Assembly: GCF_000020025.1 (NCBI RefSeq)
Contig: NC_010628.1
Span: 7,020,001 to 7,052,000, forward strand
Source of the DNA: Nostoc punctiforme PCC 73102
GTDB taxonomy: Bacteria; Cyanobacteriota; Cyanobacteriia; Cyanobacteriales; Nostocaceae
Direction of reading: 5' to 3'
DNA length: 32,000 nt
In this document: positions 5,915 to 29,680 of the stretch, in pieces
Numbering within the stretch: the stretch's first letter is position 1
How the letters are laid out: the number at the start of each line of letters is the position of its first letter
The notes under the pieces: generated by a model
Databases searched by the model: none
Told to the model about the DNA's origin: nothing
Seen by the model: only the letters and a program-made list of their open reading frames with translations
Position numbers and translations under genes: made by a program

Positions 5915-6186
5915 GTGACTTTGCTAAATCGAAGCAGTAATTATCATCTTTCTTGAGTTTCCAGTCTCTGGCTGAAAACTCAAGAAAAATTGAGTATTTA
6001 TTAAAAAGCAAAATCTATTTAAATTATTTTTTAAAATATCTTAATATTTCTCAATTAAGTTTAAAAAATCTTGGGGTTGGATTAAGAATCAATTAAGATA
6101 AGTCGCTTTGTAAAGGTTAGTTGATATTCCTTGTCAAACTGCTGGTGAAGTTAGAAACTAAGAAATACAACACACGCAATTATTTT

Positions 6187-10862: not shown

Positions 10863-10970
10863 ATGATCAAAATAGCCACACGTAAATATTTAGGCAAACA
10901 AAATGTCTATGACATTGGAGTTGAGCGCGACCATAATTTTGCACTCAAAAATGGCTTCATAGCTTCTAAT
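10863..10970 (+). other. Split DnaE intein, C-terminal half (IntC, 36 aa), ending in Asn followed by the +1 Cys of the extein
   Basis: The 36 aa match the published Npu DnaE IntC as recalled. The terminal 'ASN|CFN' splice junction is present. Confidence 0.9.
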
Positions 10971-12215
10971 TGTTTCAATAAATCCCATTCGACCGCCTAT
11001 GGTTATGTAACTTATCAGACAGCATATTTAAAAGCTAATTACCCATTGGAATATATGGCAGCCCTGTTAACTGCTAACAGTGGCGATACCGATAAGGTAC
11101 AGAGATATATTACTAACTGTACAAACATGGGTATTTCCATAGATCCGCCAGATATTAATCGTTCTGGTGTTGATTTTACACCGACATTGGGAAAGATTTT
11201 GTTTGGATTTTCGGCGGTGCGTAACGTGGGACAGAATGCGATCGCCTGTATTTTAGAGGCGAGAAATGAGACAGGAGAGTTTAAATCTCTCGCTGATTTT
11301 TGCGATCGTGTGGATTTACGTGCTGTTAACCGTCGGACTCTAGAATCGCTGATTTACTGTGGAGCCTTTGACAAAATTGAATCCAACCGCCAACAGTTAA
11401 TTAATGACTCAGAATTAGTGTATGATTGGGCACAATCTCGCGCCAAAGACAGAGCTAGTGGACAAGGGAATCTCTTTGACTTATTAGGCGATGGATTTTC
11501 TTCTACTCAGAATAAAAGAGTAAATAATGCCTTTGAAACTGCTCCTAAATCTAAACCTGTGACAGATTTACCCCCACAGAAAAAGTTGCAGATGGAGAAA
11601 GAATTATTAGGTTTTTATGTATCAGACCATCCACTGAAATCCTTACGGCAAATAGCACCACTTTTAACTCCAATTAACCTTTCGCAATTAGGAGAGCAAA
11701 GGGAAGACACAAGGCTTTGTGCAGTTGTGATGTTAAATAACGTCAAAAAAGTGGTGACAAAGAAAGGCGATCAGATGGCCATTTTGCAAATAGAAGACCT
11801 AACCACACAATCAGAAGCTGTAGTTTTTCCTAAAACTTATGAACGCATTAGTTCCTTACTTCAAGTTGATACAAGATTGATTATTTGGGGGAAAGTAGAC
11901 CGACGCGACGAGCAAACTCAATTTATTGTTGAAGATGCAGAGCCAGTGGAAACAGTACAAATGGTAATGGTAGAGTTAAATCCCCAGCAAGCAGGTGATA
12001 TGGAAAAACTACATCTCTTGAAAACAATTTTGCAAGAGCATTCAGTAGACAAAGAAAAGGCAAAAATGCCAGTTATTGGAATTATCCAAACTGAAAAGTC
12101 TCGGAAACTTGTTCGCTTGGGTTGGCAGTTTTCTGTACAAGATTCAAGAATAACCGTTCAAGCTTTGCAAAATGCTAGTTTTCCTGCTCATATCAAATCG
12201 CTCACTGGTAGCTAA
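10863..12215 (+). CDS. dnaE: DNA polymerase III alpha subunit, C-terminal fragment (DnaE-C), preceded by the split-intein C-fragment
   Basis: The ORF starts 'MIKIATRKYLGKQNVYDIGVERDHNFALKNGFIASN' and continues with the extein 'CFNKSHSTAYGYVTYQTAYLKANYP...' (Pol III alpha finger and OB-fold region). SD-like 'aaggtagg' lies just upstream of the ATG. Confidence 0.95.
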   Translation: MIKIATRKYLGKQNVYDIGVERDHNFALKNGFIASNCFNKSHSTAYGYVTYQTAYLKANYPLEYMAALLTANSGDTDKVQRYITNCTNMGISIDPPDINRSGVDFTPTLGKILFGFSAVRNVGQNAIACILEARNETGEFKSLADFCDRVDLRAVNRRTLESLIYCGAFDKIESNRQQLINDSELVYDWAQSRAKDRASGQGNLFDLLGDGFSSTQNKRVNNAFETAPKSKPVTDLPPQKKLQMEKELLGFYVSDHPLKSLRQIAPLLTPINLSQLGEQREDTRLCAVVMLNNVKKVVTKKGDQMAILQIEDLTTQSEAVVFPKTYERISSLLQVDTRLIIWGKVDRRDEQTQFIVEDAEPVETVQMVMVELNPQQAGDMEKLHLLKTILQEHSVDKEKAKMPVIGIIQTEKSRKLVRLGWQFSVQDSRITVQALQNASFPAHIKSLTGS

Positions 12216-24007: not shown

Positions 24008-24712
24008 CTATTCAACTTTTTCATACCAGATACCTACTTTCTCAAAAGCACCATAAGCAAGCTTGAGAAAATTCACGACTCTCTGTTTCCCAATTATCCC
24101 AAATTCTTTATACTCTCTAGCCTCTGCAAAAGTCAGGCGATTTTGGTCAATTATGTTTCTTTCTCTGTATGCTAACTTCGGAAAATCTATAACTTTTATC
24201 TGATATTTATTTACTATGTTCTGAAAGTTGGAGTCTGACTCTAGATGCTCCCAATCATCACACAGCCCCAAATTCCTCACCAGAATATGAGGGATTTTTT
24301 CACCGTAAGTATTCACTGACTGAGTAAACAGGTTGATGCTGTCATATCCTCCTGTCGATATAAACCATTTACAAAACATCACTCCCTGCGAACTTCCTAG
24401 TTCAAGTAATTGATTAGATTCAATCCACCCTTGCACTGCTCTATGCGATTGTGCGGCTAAATTCACAATTACTGGCCTCTCTATGGCCCACTCGAATATT
24501 CTATCTGCCTTATTTGCCTGTCGTTCGTTCTCACTAAACACAGCATACTTACATATTTCCTTATATACCCCTGCCACATCTGGATTCGATCTATCTGTCT
24601 CCACTGGTACAAATGGGATTCTCTTATCCAGACAATACTGAATCATTGTCCTGGCAAAGAGAGATTTTCCTACCCCGCCTTTTTCACCATCCACAAAATG
24701 AATCGTCGGCAT
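24008..24712 (-). CDS. Orphan ParA-superfamily P-loop ATPase, TraL (IncP)-like
   Basis: The ATG at 24712 is preceded by SD 'gaggtgg'. 'MPTIHFVDGEKGGVGKS' carries the deviant Walker A KGGxGKS at the extreme N-terminus. The overall size (234 aa), 'ETDRSNP' and the C-terminal 'RLTFAEA' recall conjugative TraL as remembered. No other transfer genes are nearby. Confidence 0.6.
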   Translation of the reverse strand: MPTIHFVDGEKGGVGKSLFARTMIQYCLDKRIPFVPVETDRSNPDVAGVYKEICKYAVFSENERQANKADRIFEWAIERPVIVNLAAQSHRAVQGWIESNQLLELGSSQGVMFCKWFISTGGYDSINLFTQSVNTYGEKIPHILVRNLGLCDDWEHLESDSNFQNIVNKYQIKVIDFPKLAYRERNIIDQNRLTFAEAREYKEFGIIGKQRVVNFLKLAYGAFEKVGIWYEKVE

Positions 24713-25069
24713 TACAGCCACCTCTAATACTTATTAAAGCCTGATACATCTTTCCCAAAATAAGAACTTTTTGGCCGTTGCCGCCTAGTTGTTTTGGTGG
24801 TTTTATGAGAAAGTATAACCGTGATTTGGATATATTCCAACAGTCTCATTTTACACAGGTAAAGTCCGCACTTCGGCAGGCTCAGTGACCATCTGCGCGG
24901 ACTAAGACAAAACAAGGGGCTTAAGCCTCTTGTTGTAAGTTGATTGAGAACTAAAAACCGAAAATTTAGGTTTTCAGACATTCTTTACAACAAGAATTAG
25001 GAATTTTGAGAAGAAATTGCCAAGGGAAGTTGTTTAAAATAAGCCTGGAGTTACTTGCAGATCAACACT

Positions 25070-25288
25070 ATGGCGGAAATTCAGTTAGCGATTGAGGGTG
25101 AAGATGCGATGCCTACGGCGGGCTACGCCTACGCAGCAACAGAAGTACTTTTGGCAATTCCTGGTATATCTGGTAACTATGCAGTGAGTTCAGATGCACC
25201 GGAAAGAGAAGGAATAACAGCAACAGTTGCTACCATCGTTGGTATTGTTGGGGGTGCGATCGCTATTGCTGAACAAATCCGCAAGTGA
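25070..25288 (+). CDS. Small protein with a hydrophobic helix; the reading frame continues past an in-frame TGA to 25417
   Basis: The ATG at 25070 gives 'MAEIQLAIEGEDA...ITATVATIVGIVGGAIAIAEQIRK*'. The same frame reads on as 'YQEYKAKQSGKRIEKVLIVGRNGRRLLLEDATLEEIRQILES*' (TAG at 25415-25417). It carries a dispersed-repeat insertion ('MPTAGYAYA'). It lies 81 nt upstream of the CHAT gene on the same strand. Confidence 0.5.
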   Translation: MAEIQLAIEGEDAMPTAGYAYAATEVLLAIPGISGNYAVSSDAPEREGITATVATIVGIVGGAIAIAEQIRK

Positions 25289-25498
25289 TATCAGGAGTAT
25301 AAAGCCAAACAGTCTGGTAAAAGAATTGAAAAGGTGTTGATTGTCGGGCGCAATGGTAGGCGACTTCTTTTAGAGGATGCAACCCTGGAAGAGATTCGCC
25401 AAATTTTAGAATCGTAGAGATGCGATTAATCGCGTCTGTTGTTACGGAATTGGGGGTGGTAGACTTGGGGTAAATACTGAAGTCTCAGGATTCAGAAC

Positions 25499-28400
25499 GT
25501 GCAAACGCTCCACCTCGACCTTAAGCCAGTTGATGATAATTACGTAGAGTTACGTTACTTTGTTGATAATCCTAACCAGTATGAGAAGCGATCGCTCTGT
25601 TTAACAGAAATCGCCGACTTGATTAAGTTGGCTGAGAGAGATTATTACGTTTCGTTTTTCCCAGAGGATTATACGGTAACTGGGCGGCGGTTGTATAACT
25701 GGTTGGATGGGAGCGATCGCTGGCTACAACCCTTGCTAGATAAGTATCGGCGGGAGGGGATTGTGTTAGCGATCGCTACATCTGAAAAACTTGCTCATCT
25801 GCCTTGGGAAGTGTTGCACGATGGCAATGGTTTTTTAGTGCAGCGTGTCCCGGCTATTGTTCCGGTGCGGTGGGTATCGGATAGCACGGTAAAAAAATTG
25901 ACCATTGACGGGGAAGCAGAAAACCGGGCGCTGCAAGTTTTGTTTATGGCGACTTCGCCGTTGAATGTCGAGCCTGTGCTGGATTTTGAGGGGGAGGAAG
26001 CACGGATTTTGGAGGCGACAAAGCGGCAACCTTTAGCGCTGACGGTGGAAGAAAGCGGCTGTTTGTCGGAGTTGGGTTATTTAGTCGATGGTTACGGCAA
26101 AGATTATTTTGATGTTTTACACCTGACGGGTCATGCTACTTTTCAAGATGGGCAACCGCGCTTTATTACAGAAACCGCAACAGGTGAAGCTTTCTATGCG
26201 AGTGCTGGGGATATTGCCCAAGAATTACAATTTCAACTGCCTAAACTCATTTTCCTCTCTGGTTGTCGCACTGGGCAAGCTGGCAATTCGGGATCTGTGC
26301 CGTCAATGGCAGAAGAGTTGCTCAAATCAGGAGCAAAAGCGGTTTTGGGTTGGGGTCAAAAGGTTTTAGATGCCGATGCGACAGCCGCAGCAGCCGCATT
26401 ATATGAGGAATTATCAGCCGGAAAGCAGATCGCTGAGGCTGTGGCTTGTACTTATCAAGCATTAATTAAGAACAACGCGTGGGATTGGCATTTGTTGCGG
26501 CTGTATGCAGCAGGTAATTTACCAAGTTCATTAGTCACACCCAGAGGAAAACCTGGACGGAAACCAGCACCACCGCTTTCTGTTTCTACCCAGTTTTTAG
26601 ATGCCGCAGGTAAAGTCAAAGTCCCGACGCGGGAAAGTTTTGTTGGTCGTCGCCGCCAATTGCAAAGTTGTTTGCGAGTGCTGAGTCAATCAACCGATGA
26701 GGTTGGGGTGTTGATTCATGGCATGGGCGGTTTGGGTAAAAGTAGTTTAGCAGCTAGGCTGTGCGACAGACTGCCGAATTTTGAGCGTGTTGTCTGGGTG
26801 GGAAGAATCGATGAAGCGAGTTTGGTGAGTCGTTTGGCGGAAAAGTTGGATGACAACGAACAACGCAAAAGCCTACAAAATTATGATGAAGAATTGAGAT
26901 TTCGGCTGCGGCGAGTTTTCCAGGATTTGCATGAGCAAGCAAAGCCGTTTTTGTTGGTGCTGGATGACTTTGAAGTGAATTTAGAGACCTCTCCCCCAAC
27001 CCCTCTCCGAGGCGGAGAGGGGAGTCCAGTTCCCCCCTTCCCTAGCAGGGAAGGGGGGTTAGGGGGGTTAGGTCGCTTGCAAACGGAAGCAGCAGAGGTA
27101 ATGAAGGCTTTAGTTTGGGCAATTAAAGAAAATTACACTTCCCATCGCATCATTATTACTTGCCGTTACGATTTTGAATTTACTCTGTTGCAGTATTTCC
27201 ACAAGCAGCCGTTGGATGCACTGCAAGGTGCAGATTTGCAAAAAAAGTTTAATCGCCTCACAGCCTTTAGTGCTAAATCTCAGGTGGATGAGGCGTTAAA
27301 ATCGCAGGCGCAGAAGTTGGCGGATGGTAATCCCCGCTTGCTGGAATGGTTGGATAAGATTCTGCAAAATACAACTGTTGATGTGGCAGCAATTTTGAAT
27401 CGGTTGGCAGCAGATCCGGTGGAGTTGCGAGAGCAAGTTTTGGCAGAGGCGCTGCTGCAACAGATGGATTCAACTATGCGGGAGATGTTGGCGCGGGGTT
27501 TGGTGTTTGAGTTGCCAATACCAAGGGAAGCTTTAGCCGCAGTTTGTGACACTATCCCCAATTTGGAAGATTATATTAGTCGGGCGGTGGCGTTGGGGCT
27601 GTTGGAAGTGAGTCATGATGAGGCGTTACGAGTGCCGCGCATTTTGCCAGTGCAGTTACCAGAAGATGGGGAAGCTTTGCATAAGCAGGCGGCTGAGGTG
27701 CTGTATCGTCTGTGGTGGGAAGAGGTGAAAACAGAAATTGAGGAACAACGCTTAGAAATTCATCGGTTGGCGTTCCGAGGAAAGGTAAACAAGATTACTG
27801 TAGAAATTGCAGGGAAACTTGCAAGAAGTTGGAAAAGTCAAAGCCGATTTCGAGAAGCTGTTCAATTATGCAAATCAACTTTAGAACTTGCTGAAGATTA
27901 TTTAGTCTTACACGAGTTAGCTCGCTCTGAACAAGAATTAGGTGATGTAAATAAAGCTCAAACGCATTATCAACAAGCGTTAGATAACTGTCCAGCAGAA
28001 GACGAAGAAGAAAAAGCAGCAATTATTCACAACTTGGGAATACTCAAAGCCAATAGCGGAGAAATAGAAGAAGCGATCGCCCTTTATCAACAATCCCTCG
28101 CTATCACTGAACAAATCGGCAATGTCCAAACTCAGGCGGCGACGTTGCACTGTTTGGGAATACTCAAAGCCAATAGCGGAGAAATAGAAGAAGCGATCGC
28201 CCTTTATCAACAATCCCTCGCTATCACTGAACAAATCGGCGATGTCCAAGGTAAGGCGGCGACGTTGCACTGTTTGGGAATGCTCAAAGCCAATAGGGGA
28301 GAAATAGAAGAAGCGATCGCCCTTTATCAACAATCCCTTGCTATCGAAGAACAAATCGGCAATGTCCAAGGTCAGGCGGCGACGTTGCACGAAATGGGAG

Positions 28401-29251
28401 TACTCAAAGCCAATAGGGGAGAAATAGAAGAAGCGATCGCCCTTTATCAACAATCCCTCGCTATCACTGAACAAATCGACCATGTCCAAACTCAGGCGGC
28501 GACGTTGCACGAAATGGGAGTACTCAAAGCCAATAGGGGAGAAATAGAAGAAGCGATCGCCCTTTATCAACAATCCCTTGCTATCGAAGAACAAATCGGC
28601 AATGTCCAAGGTCAGGCGGCGACGTTGCACGAAATGGGAGTACTCAAAGCCAATAGGGGAGAAATAGAAGAAGCGATCGCCCTTTATCAACAATCCCTCG
28701 CTATCAAAGAACAAATCGGCGATGTCCAAGGTCAGGCGGCGACGTTGCACGAAATGGGAGTACTCAAAGCCAATAGGGGAGAAATAGAAGAAGCGATCGC
28801 CCTTTATCAACAATCCCTCGCTATCAAAGAACAAATCGGCGATGTCAAAACTCAGGCGGCGACGTTTCACCAACTGGGAATACTCAAAGCCGATAGCGGA
28901 GAAATAGAAGAAGCGATCGCCCTTTATCAACAATCCCTCGCTATCACTGAACAAATCGGCAATGTCCAAACTCAGGCGGCGACGTTGCACTGTTTGGGAA
29001 TACTCAAAGCCAATAGCGGAGAAATAGAAGAAGCGATCGCCCTTTATCAACAATCCCTCGCTATCACTGAACAAATCGGCGATGTCCAAACTCAGGCTAT
29101 GACTTTGTGGTGGTTAGGACATATAGCAGAACAACAGGGAAATTATAATCAAGCACTAGATTATTTGCAGCCAGCCTTGGAGATATTGCAGCGTATCCAA
29201 TCTCCTGATGCTGAGGAAGTTAGGCAAATGGTAGCGAGGTGCAAGATTTAA
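25499..29251 (+). CDS. CHAT (caspase-like protease) / P-loop STAND-like NTPase / TPR-repeat protein, 1250 aa
   Basis: GTG start. CHAT dyad candidates are His212 in 'DVLHLTGHATF' (26132-26134) and Cys256 in 'LIFLSGCRTGQ' (26264-26266). Walker A 'HGMGGLGKSS' starts at 26720 and Walker B 'FLLVLDDFE' is at 26951-26968. The C-terminal 400 aa are TPR-like repeats 'GEIEEAIALYQQSLAI.EQIG'. Confidence 0.9.
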   Translation: MQTLHLDLKPVDDNYVELRYFVDNPNQYEKRSLCLTEIADLIKLAERDYYVSFFPEDYTVTGRRLYNWLDGSDRWLQPLLDKYRREGIVLAIATSEKLAHLPWEVLHDGNGFLVQRVPAIVPVRWVSDSTVKKLTIDGEAENRALQVLFMATSPLNVEPVLDFEGEEARILEATKRQPLALTVEESGCLSELGYLVDGYGKDYFDVLHLTGHATFQDGQPRFITETATGEAFYASAGDIAQELQFQLPKLIFLSGCRTGQAGNSGSVPSMAEELLKSGAKAVLGWGQKVLDADATAAAAALYEELSAGKQIAEAVACTYQALIKNNAWDWHLLRLYAAGNLPSSLVTPRGKPGRKPAPPLSVSTQFLDAAGKVKVPTRESFVGRRRQLQSCLRVLSQSTDEVGVLIHGMGGLGKSSLAARLCDRLPNFERVVWVGRIDEASLVSRLAEKLDDNEQRKSLQNYDEELRFRLRRVFQDLHEQAKPFLLVLDDFEVNLETSPPTPLRGGEGSPVPPFPSREGGLGGLGRLQTEAAEVMKALVWAIKENYTSHRIIITCRYDFEFTLLQYFHKQPLDALQGADLQKKFNRLTAFSAKSQVDEALKSQAQKLADGNPRLLEWLDKILQNTTVDVAAILNRLAADPVELREQVLAEALLQQMDSTMREMLARGLVFELPIPREALAAVCDTIPNLEDYISRAVALGLLEVSHDEALRVPRILPVQLPEDGEALHKQAAEVLYRLWWEEVKTEIEEQRLEIHRLAFRGKVNKITVEIAGKLARSWKSQSRFREAVQLCKSTLELAEDYLVLHELARSEQELGDVNKAQTHYQQALDNCPAEDEEEKAAIIHNLGILKANSGEIEEAIALYQQSLAITEQIGNVQTQAATLHCLGILKANSGEIEEAIALYQQSLAITEQIGDVQGKAATLHCLGMLKANRGEIEEAIALYQQSLAIEEQIGNVQGQAATLHEMGVLKANRGEIEEAIALYQQSLAITEQIDHVQTQAATLHEMGVLKANRGEIEEAIALYQQSLAIEEQIGNVQGQAATLHEMGVLKANRGEIEEAIALYQQSLAIKEQIGDVQGQAATLHEMGVLKANRGEIEEAIALYQQSLAIKEQIGDVKTQAATFHQLGILKADSGEIEEAIALYQQSLAITEQIGNVQTQAATLHCLGILKANSGEIEEAIALYQQSLAITEQIGDVQTQAMTLWWLGHIAEQQGNYNQALDYLQPALEILQRIQSPDAEEVRQMVARCKI
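26987..27073 (+). repeat. GC-rich double-hairpin element inserted in frame in the NTPase domain
   Basis: Hairpin 1: cccctctccg (27000-27009) pairs with cggagagggg (27013-27022). Hairpin 2: ccccccttccct (27032-27043) pairs with agggaagggggg (27047-27058). Both stems are perfect. The translation is low-complexity, 'SPPTPLRGGEGSPVPPFPSREGGLGGLG'. The 'cccccaacccc' motif also occurs in the 19146-19344 element. Confidence 0.7.
28016..29095 (+). repeat. Nine tandem, near-identical 120-nt (40-aa) TPR-like coding repeats
   Basis: The period is exactly 120 nt. A core of about 66 nt ('ctcaaagcc.atag.ggagaaatagaagaagcgatcgccctttatcaacaatccct.gctatc') is invariant apart from three variable sites in all nine units, and each unit contains one GCGATCGC. 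Confidence 0.95.
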
Positions 29252-29386: not shown

Positions 29387-29680
29387 TTAAGTTGATTTAT
29401 CCACGAGTCTTTGAACTCCATTAATGAGCCTTTGATACTCATTAAAGAGGTTCTGAACTCCATTAATGAGTCTTTGATACTCATTAAAGAGGTTCTGAAC
29501 TCCATTAATGAGCCTTTGAGCTTCATTAAAGAGTCTTTGAACTTCATTAATGAGCCTTTGATACTCATTAAAGAGGTTCTGAACTCCATTAATGAGTCTT
29601 TGATACTCGTTCAGCAGTTTTTTAGACTTGTGGCTTAGTTGTTGGAGATTGCGATCGCCATAATTCACCCCGAAGCACAT
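29387..29680 (-). CDS. Candidate small coiled-coil protein encoded by the 42-nt repeat (frame and strand uncertain)
   Basis: 97-aa ORF with an ATG start. It reads as heptads 'LFNEYQR LINGVQN' with hydrophobic a/d/e positions and no prolines. The other open frames are less helix-compatible. Confidence 0.35.
   Translation of the reverse strand: MCFGVNYGDRNLQQLSHKSKKLLNEYQRLINGVQNLFNEYQRLINEVQRLFNEAQRLINGVQNLFNEYQRLINGVQNLFNEYQRLINGVQRLVDKST
29401..29617. repeat. Tandem 42-nt repeat (two 21-nt half-units), about 5 copies
   Basis: The units start at 29414, 29456, 29498, 29540 and 29582: 'aactccattaatgagcctttgatactcattaaagaggttctg' with a few substitutions. Confidence 0.9.

Follow-up and report, generated by a model that had tools for sequence, protein, structure and literature searches.

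What does a small protein with one strongly hydrophobic segment do when its gene lies directly upstream of one encoding a large protein that combines a caspase-like CHAT protease domain, a STAND NTPase and a long tetratricopeptide repeat (TPR) array? The question is posed by Npun_F5697 and Npun_F5698, two adjacent genes of Nostoc punctiforme PCC 73102 contained in a stretch of 32,000 nucleotides (NC_010628.1, positions 7,020,001 to 7,052,000), from now on referred to as the window, in which all positions are counted from its first letter. We propose, with a probability of about 0.72, that the pair is a cyanobacterial EACC1-caspase two-gene conflict system acting through protease-licensed pore formation and that its effector is dead in PCC 73102 due to a TGA codon replacing Trp73 (W73). 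The pair is a cyanobacterial branch of an already known system that has been missed by current annotation. A first-pass annotation of the locus, made from the sequence alone, had recognized a two-gene sensor and cell-death module but concluded that no named system matched it. A named system does exist, namely the EACC1-caspase two-gene system described as System 4 (Kaur, Burroughs, Iyer and Aravind 2020, PMC7159879), and its sole characterized member, KrEACC1-KrAvs12 from Ktedonobacter racemifer DSM 44963, has been dissected in a preprint (Evans 2025, 10.1101/2025.11.14.688446). The features of the locus are collected in Table 1.

Table 1 Features of the EACC1-like and CHAT-STAND NTPase-TPR gene pair; positions refer to the window unless another locus (L062, L066, L107) is named.
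Feature	Positions	Strand	Remarks
EACC1-like gene, 5' part, Npun_F5697	25070..25288	+	ATG at 25070, 72 codons plus premature TGA
In-frame 21-nt dispersed-repeat insertion GCCTACGGCGGGCTACGCCTA	25111..25131	+	adds MPTAGYA, splits GCGATCGC site
Low-confidence loop, aa 38-48	25181..25213	+	conserved [RK]46-[ED]47 pair; predicted protease cleavage region
Hydrophobic segment ITATVATIVGIVGGAIAIA with central Gly patch	25214..25270	+	aa 49-67; from sequence and column conservation
Premature TGA replacing the near-invariant Trp73 codon	25286-25288	+	from translation and alignments
Stops at the same Trp codon in other loci	L062 3751-3753; L066 2091-2093; L107 ~445
In-frame untranslated remnant of EACC1 3' part	25289..25417	+	42 codons plus TAG (25415-25417)
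Intergenic spacer	25418..25498	+	between ancestral small-gene stop and large gene
CHAT-STAND NTPase-TPR gene, Npun_F5698	25499..29251	+	GTG start, 1250 aa, intact
CHAT caspase-like protease domain	25679..26485	+	H212 at 26132-26134, C256 at 26264-26266
STAND P-loop NTPase core	26639..26974	+	Walker A 26720-26743, Walker B 26951-26968
93-nt GC-rich double-hairpin element TSPPTPLRGGEGSPVPPFPSREGGLGGLGRL	26987..27079	+	in frame, just 3' of Walker B
TPR sensor array	27866..29248	+	Pfam TPR_12, TPR_10

The product of the large gene is identical to ACC83999.1, which presumably carries the locus tag Npun_F5698. The reading of this protein in the first-pass annotation as a fusion of a CHAT region with a His-Cys pair, a P-loop NTPase and a TPR array was borne out, with every motif found where it had been placed and all domains scoring above the Pfam cut-offs. 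CHAT (PF12770) covers aa 61-329 (E 1.5e-22, 80.9 bits against a gathering cut-off of 24) and includes the motifs LHLTGHA (aa 207-213, H212) and FLSGCRTG (aa 252-259, C256). It is followed by matches to AAA_16 (aa 381-492, 41.8 bits against 32.6) and NB-ARC (31.6 bits against 23.5), with Walker A GMGGLGKS at aa 408-415 (K414) and Walker B LLVLDD at aa 485-490. From about aa 790 to the end the protein matches TPR_12 (E 8.8e-65) and TPR_10 (E 1.5e-49), and Tandem Repeats Finder resolves the underlying DNA (28035-29097) into 8.9 tandem copies of a 120-nt unit with 93% matches. All of 56 orthologues keep H212, C256 and Walker A unchanged, and Walker B is nearly invariant. Identity among orthologues across loci is 52-96% for CHAT, 39-95% for the NTPase and 26-88% for the TPR region, and total protein length ranges from 860 to 1430 aa. 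This architecture fits the constant peptidase followed by a variable C-terminal region that characterizes System 4 and, judged from sequence, the variable, repeat-bearing TPR region fits a putative arms-race receptor. A Pfam search found no effector domain other than CHAT in the large protein.

The reading frame of the large gene further contains a 93-nt double-hairpin element with a predicted fold energy of -64.6 kcal/mol. It takes the place of the peptide PRNESYVL in a patchy subset of orthologues and is 88-94% identical across genera, and both L075 and L066 carry copies of it at different sites; its behaviour is that of a very small mobile repeat tolerated within a coding loop. An antisense ORF (open reading frame) of 369 aa (27980..29089, - strand) was considered as a gene and rejected, being a repetitive by-product of the 120-nt TPR tandem array.

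For the small gene, the earlier description was right about the ATG and the hydrophobic stretch, whereas the charged tail YQEYKAKQSGKRIEKVLIVGRNGRRLLLEDATLEEIRQILES and the 81-nt spacing to the large gene that it reported both require read-through of an in-frame TGA to the TAG located 42 codons further downstream. Measured from the TGA, the gap to the large ORF is 210 nt; only from the ancestral TAG is it 81 nt. The 72-aa product encoded up to the TGA exactly matches ACC83998.1, and the deposited genome annotates Npun_F5697 at this length. These 72 codons encode an N-terminal β-α-β part, predicted to be autoinhibitory, a loop, the hydrophobic Gly-rich segment and half of helix 2, while the remnant beyond the stop encodes the rest of helix 2, two β-strands and a C-terminal helix. 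Translated with read-through, the gene matches 406 homologues with lengths of 107-115 aa, typically 107-108 aa, and most of the matches listed span 97-100% of the 115-aa query. Within the family, the glycines G58, G61 and G62 of ITATVATIVGIVGGAIAIA are conserved in 166-183 of 216 members, the loop pair is R/K in 201/216 and E/D in 185/216, and the position of the stop codon is occupied by Trp in 210/216. The loop has a block-mean predicted local distance difference test score (pLDDT) of 62. At the orthologous locus of the N. punctiforme sister strain UO1, synteny is the same, the DNA is 97% identical and the codon is TGG, so that the two differ here by a single G-to-A change. A one-genome-per-species scan gave 245 relatives, from which 80 loci, all cyanobacterial, were kept; in 72 of these the small gene is intact and full-length.

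The translation of the remnant is 100% identical to intact Nostoc homologues, with only synonymous changes in the window lineage. The 42 downstream codons being thus intact, the stop must be recent, unless it is an error in the sole deposited genome. With the final helix, the two strands before it and half of helix 2 missing from the 72-aa product, the effector is most likely dead and the module disarmed, if the Ktedonobacter protein is a guide: loss of function is expected because the C-terminal strands pack on the inhibitory fragment and because β-strand contacts between protomers are modelled to hold the pore ring together (10.1101/2025.11.14.688446). The model strain PCC 73102 (ATCC 29133) therefore probably holds a disarmed copy next to an intact large gene, so that negative phenotypes obtained in it would be uninformative; relatives such as UO1 hold the intact pair. 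The small gene also carries a 21-nt in-frame insertion which, according to DNA alignment, is confined to the N. punctiforme clade, and 7 other cyanobacterial loci contain an identical 21-mer at places unrelated to this one.

The assignment of the small protein to the EACC class had been suggested tentatively in the first-pass annotation and now has support from profiles and predicted structure. Searches of Pfam, NCBIfam, PADLOC and PHROGs with the small protein returned no match, and of the profile searches that had been proposed for the pair, those for CHAT, AAA_16/NB-ARC and TPR_10/TPR_12 succeeded, whereas the EACC1 profile gave no direct match. A profile built from cyanobacterial homologues only (A4) was used in an exhaustive hidden Markov model (HMM) search, which yielded 233 cluster representatives. 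The more distant ones include actinobacterial-type proteins whose close relatives carry precomputed PF19953 (EACC1) matches. Six of the proteins matched by A4 themselves pass the Pfam EACC1 cut-off of 23.6 bits (P0281 with 27.8, P0283 with 32.0, P0294 with 28.2, P0297 with 27.3, P0303 with 25.2 and P0278 with 24.2 bits), and A4 matches these same six over positions 4-105 with E-values of 1e-11 to 2e-8, scaled to Z = 1.84e9 for the library of 1.84 billion sequences. P0259 reached an A4 E-value of 1.2e-10 in the full library search.

AlphaFold2 models were compared between a Nostoc member (pLDDT 82; E2-10 H13-21 E26-32 E44-51 H55-73 E79-85 E91-93 H99-107) and KrEACC1 (pLDDT 84; E3-11 H15-32 E37-41 E53-59 H60-76 E81-85 E91-96 H101-113), the sequence of the latter taken from the supplement of 10.1101/2025.11.14.688446. 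Both show the order β-α-β, a low-confidence loop and then β-α-β-β-α, and in both models the loop lies at the place of the Kr cleavage site Asp49. Foldseek searches of the small-protein model against the PDB and BFVD gave generic ferredoxin-like matches only (E > 0.001), and a sequence search of the PDB found nothing for either protein. Taken together, the profile matches and the models lead us to conclude that the small protein is a divergent cyanobacterial EACC1 overlooked by the Pfam model. This extends the EACC1 family past the reach of the current Pfam model and makes CHAT-STAND-TPR proteins regular EACC1 partners.

The pairing of the two genes is conserved. A CHAT gene lies directly 3' of the small gene and on the same strand in about 70 of the 80 loci, usually with NTPase and TPR parts; the figure was counted by eye from the locus table, and 3 further loci end at a contig edge. 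Such linkage is far beyond chance and upholds both the proposed module and the expectation that neighbourhoods of small-ORF homologues would contain CHAT genes. The arrangement is that of System 4, in which the EACC1 gene stands immediately 5' of a caspase-superfamily peptidase gene on the same strand. Outside the cyanobacterial set, a metagenome contig encodes a Pfam-positive EACC1 10 nt upstream of a protein with CHAT (aa 61-325), AAA_16 (aa 380-499) and TPRs, the same layout as the window pair, and EACC1-like genes also adjoin CHAT genes in Streptomyces and another metagenome contig. The spacer that separates the two genes showed no terminator-like site. It is preceded by the ancestral stop of the small gene, directly after which comes the palindrome AGAtGCGATTAATCGCgTCT (25417-25437, + strand); this is a perfect 20-nt palindrome in other Nostoc and might act as an RNA hairpin or as an intergenic operator.

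Both published descriptions resemble the Nostoc pair in several respects. System 4 (PMC7159879) has a 5' gene for a protein of about 110 aa with one conserved hydrophobic helix, a central patch of Gly and other small residues and α+β flanks, as found here, and a 3' gene with an N-terminal caspase-superfamily peptidase ahead of a variable region in which STAND NTPases and repeats can occur. It is likewise associated with multicellular bacteria. However, it was described as prevalent in actinobacteria and sporadic in proteobacteria, while the cyanobacterial clade stays under the threshold of Pfam EACC1 and its members, where named, are mostly called "hypothetical protein". In the KrEACC1-KrAvs12 pair, too, a gene for a protein of about 110 aa lies directly upstream of one for a caspase-like Cys protease with a STAND NTPase sensor, and besides the order of predicted elements both small proteins share a conserved acidic loop residue and a conserved Trp in helix 2. 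The Nostoc pair differs in that its sensor is a TPR array of near-identical 40-aa repeats and its effector gene is truncated, and direct sequence similarity to the Kr proteins is not significant. The KrAvs12 protease fragment has no CHAT match in Pfam, and the proteases that partner EACC1 proteins therefore belong to different caspase-superfamily families.

In the Ktedonobacter system, the caspase-like domain of KrAvs12 cleaves KrEACC1 and toxicity arises only from the C-terminal fragment (Evans 2025, 10.1101/2025.11.14.688446). Deletion of KrEACC1 abolishes toxicity, the cleaved protein permeabilizes liposomes, and the system responds to phage tail connector proteins. The N-terminal part of KrEACC1 is autoinhibitory and packs against the two C-terminal strands, and pore rings were modelled via β-strand contacts between neighbouring protomers. 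Fusions of EACC1-protease systems to DnaK-like chaperones are also described and stress-response roles suggested (all 10.1101/2025.11.14.688446).

From this prototype we infer how an intact Nostoc pair may work. The TPR array of the large protein would bind a trigger, most likely a phage protein, upon which the STAND NTPase would oligomerize and gather the N-terminal CHAT protease domains, leading to their activation. CHAT would then cut EACC1 in the loop that follows the autoinhibitory β-α-β part, at a predicted site beside R46-E47 that parallels Kr Asp49. The freed C-terminal fragment, consisting of the hydrophobic Gly-rich segment, a helix, two β-strands and a final helix, would form membrane pores and thereby kill the cell. 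The first-pass annotation had cast the large protein as executioner and the small one as membrane adaptor or target. By the Kr prototype these roles are probably reversed, with the small protein executing and the caspase-like domain serving as licensing protease only. As a target of the protease the small protein was thus well placed, but not as an adaptor, its counterpart in the characterized system being a protease-activated pore former. The proposal supplies both a name and a mechanism that can be tested for a gene pair that is widespread in cyanobacteria (245 species-level genomes) and has remained unannotated. A search for cyanophage or expression data on Npun_F5697 and Npun_F5698 turned up none, and the locus tags were not found in any paper.

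Related logic is seen in bacterial gasdermin-protease and Pepco (Trypco)-protease modules, in which an adjacent protease strips an inhibitory part off a small latent pore former (as summarized in 10.1101/2025.11.14.688446). The folds are unrelated and the details differ: gasdermins lose a C-terminal inhibitory peptide and Pepco forms a pre-assembled barrel, whereas EACC1 is inhibited by its N-terminal part and its monomers come together only once cut. Proteolysis of a small partner also occurs in type III-E CRISPR systems. In Craspase, the TPR-CHAT protease Csx29 cleaves the small, nearby-encoded partner Csx30. The combination of a CHAT-family protease and TPR repeats with a small partner protein encoded nearby resembles the Nostoc pair; however, Craspase is activated by the RNA-guided Cas7-11 complex rather than a STAND NTPase, and its substrate is a sigma-factor regulator rather than a pore former. 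Csx30 has been listed among protease-associated modules (10.1101/2025.11.14.688446).

Several observations weigh against the pair being a disarmed EACC1-caspase conflict system. PF19953 matches neither the 72-aa product nor the restored 115-aa protein, and among 21 close relatives it gave 2 matches with a best E-value of 0.066. In direct profile-profile comparison the Nostoc and Ktedonobacter EACC1 families did not match significantly (13 bits in one comparison), and EACC1 membership therefore rests on intermediate sequences. No Avs model matched the large protein in PADLOC-DB 2.0, which returned generic TPR and weak REase_II matches only, though this 2023 release may predate Avs12. Substrate recognition may differ from the prototype, the partner protease here being CHAT as opposed to the non-CHAT fragment of KrAvs12. 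The family is well conserved and tracks taxonomy, which is unusual for a defence gene, so that the system may not be antiviral. Finally, the TGA is known from one deposited genome, and an independent assembly confirming it was sought and not found.

The stop in the window does not stand alone. In a survey of 81 genomes, all 3 in-frame stops found in the small gene fall on the same Trp codon, in three separate lineages: TGA in the window, TGA in Microseira wollei NIES-4236 and TAG in a Nostocales metagenome-assembled genome (MAG), the TAG allele also being present in an independent metagenome contig. Metagenome contigs have 42 TGG, 1 TAG and no TGA or TAA at this codon. Each small gene offers 45-50 single-base routes to a stop. 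With the transition/transversion ratio set to values of 1-8, the chance of 3/3 stops falling on Trp is 8e-5 to 3e-3, and with transitions alone it is about 0.009, in a test that is post hoc and based on a small sample. In both other stop-bearing genomes the CHAT gene is broken as well, and the small gene of L062 has two family-invariant residues replaced (G10R and the E of AEQ by A). A different lesion is found in the close relative Nostoc sp. LEGE 12450, where a 5-nt CTTTT duplication (L049, ~5990-6000) causes a frameshift near codon 27 beside an intact CHAT-STAND gene of 1112 aa. Fragments of the large gene are common among the loci, although some of these fragments may stem from misassembled MAGs. 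All in all, the module seems to decay frequently. The recurrence at the Trp codon may reflect selection or a mutational hot spot, and it poses a small evolutionary puzzle as to the ways in which suicide toxins are tolerated or lost by cells.

These lesions bear on the possibility that the module is still wholly or partly functional in PCC 73102, the TGA being either a sequencing error or an attenuated allele in which tRNA-Trp decodes the codon at low frequency and supplies a small full-length dose. UGA is the leakiest stop codon and can be misread by tRNA-Trp. The large gene retains all catalytic motifs, the 42 codons beyond the stop are unchanged from functional homologues except for synonymous differences, and the recurrence at one Trp codon would also fit. 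Yet tRNA-Trp could not rescue TAG, the stop seen in one of the three recurrent cases, and the window TGA is followed by T. UGAU is an efficient terminator in Escherichia coli. Broken CHAT genes in the two other stop genomes and the frameshift in L049 fit decay rather than regulation, and the finished genome annotates a 72-aa product; we therefore regard a functional module as rather improbable. That the repeated Trp-to-stop change is, instead of random decay, a selected "safety catch" switched reversibly by a single base, in which leaky UGA keeps the toxin dose low and A-to-G reversion re-arms the system, appears very unlikely; if true, lineages would silence or attenuate a pore toxin yet keep the remaining gene and the sensor-protease intact. 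Even less credit is given to a function of the 72-aa product itself, be it as a decoy substrate that soaks up the protease or as a source, once cleaved, of the 25-residue hydrophobic peptide G48-K72. The truncated product does retain the N-terminal domain, the predicted cleavage loop and the hydrophobic segment, and such a function could account for three independent stops at one codon despite so many other routes, but the partner protease gene is broken in 2/3 cases, the L062 replacements indicate relaxed constraint, and the same caveats about sample size and post hoc testing apply.

That the system works as described but in a non-antiviral setting, serving programmed cell death during development or under stress, or else the fragmentation of filaments, in filamentous cyanobacteria, is unlikely in our view, though several facts point that way. 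The family is found in 245 species-level genomes with identity tracking taxonomy and 60-95% conservation of the small protein, the chaperone fusions and suggested stress roles (Evans 2025) would suit such a function, and caspase-fold proteases of Anabaena have developmental substrates, HetF acting on PatU3. On the other hand, the TPR sensor evolves fast in sequence and total protein length, as is typical of arms-race sensors, both genes are often pseudogenized, which would be unexpected for a core developmental function, and the only characterized member responds to phage proteins. The original proposal for System 4 (Kaur et al. 2020), which corresponds to the adaptor of the first-pass annotation, places the small protein in the membrane as a sensor or anchor that activates the caspase-like domain, while the death effector lies elsewhere; it seems highly doubtful for this pair. 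It would explain the conserved hydrophobic segment with its Gly patch, and pore formation in the cyanobacterial clade is itself argued by analogy with the Kr prototype. In that prototype, however, toxicity is lost when KrEACC1 is deleted, the C-terminal fragment is toxic by itself and the cleaved protein makes liposomes leak. AlphaFold2 moreover predicts the uncleaved protein as a compact α+β fold with the hydrophobic stretch partly in a strand, which fits a soluble latent form, and the large protein has no other effector domain in Pfam.

Neighbouring genes were considered as further components and rejected. The divergent upstream P-loop gene (24008..24721, - strand) encodes a MobD/TraL-like plasmid mobilization protein and is found in only some Nostoc. 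The gene stands alone on the chromosome, shares 81% identity with one carried by a plasmid of Nostoc flagelliforme and comes and goes among Nostoc at exactly this locus; it looks like a mobile-element remnant next to the module. Methyltransferase and DUF202 genes show local synteny only, the upstream methyltransferase being kept only among close Nostoc. Downstream of the large gene, an intergenic tandem repeat (29405-29608) of 4.7 copies of a 42-nt unit with a 21-nt sub-period gives rise to spurious repetitive ORFs on both strands. Further away in the window, positions 10863-12215 (+ strand) encode the C-terminal half of DNA polymerase III alpha (DnaE), which opens with the Npu DnaE split-intein C fragment MIKIATRKYLGKQNVYDIGVERDHNFALKNGFIASN followed by CFN.

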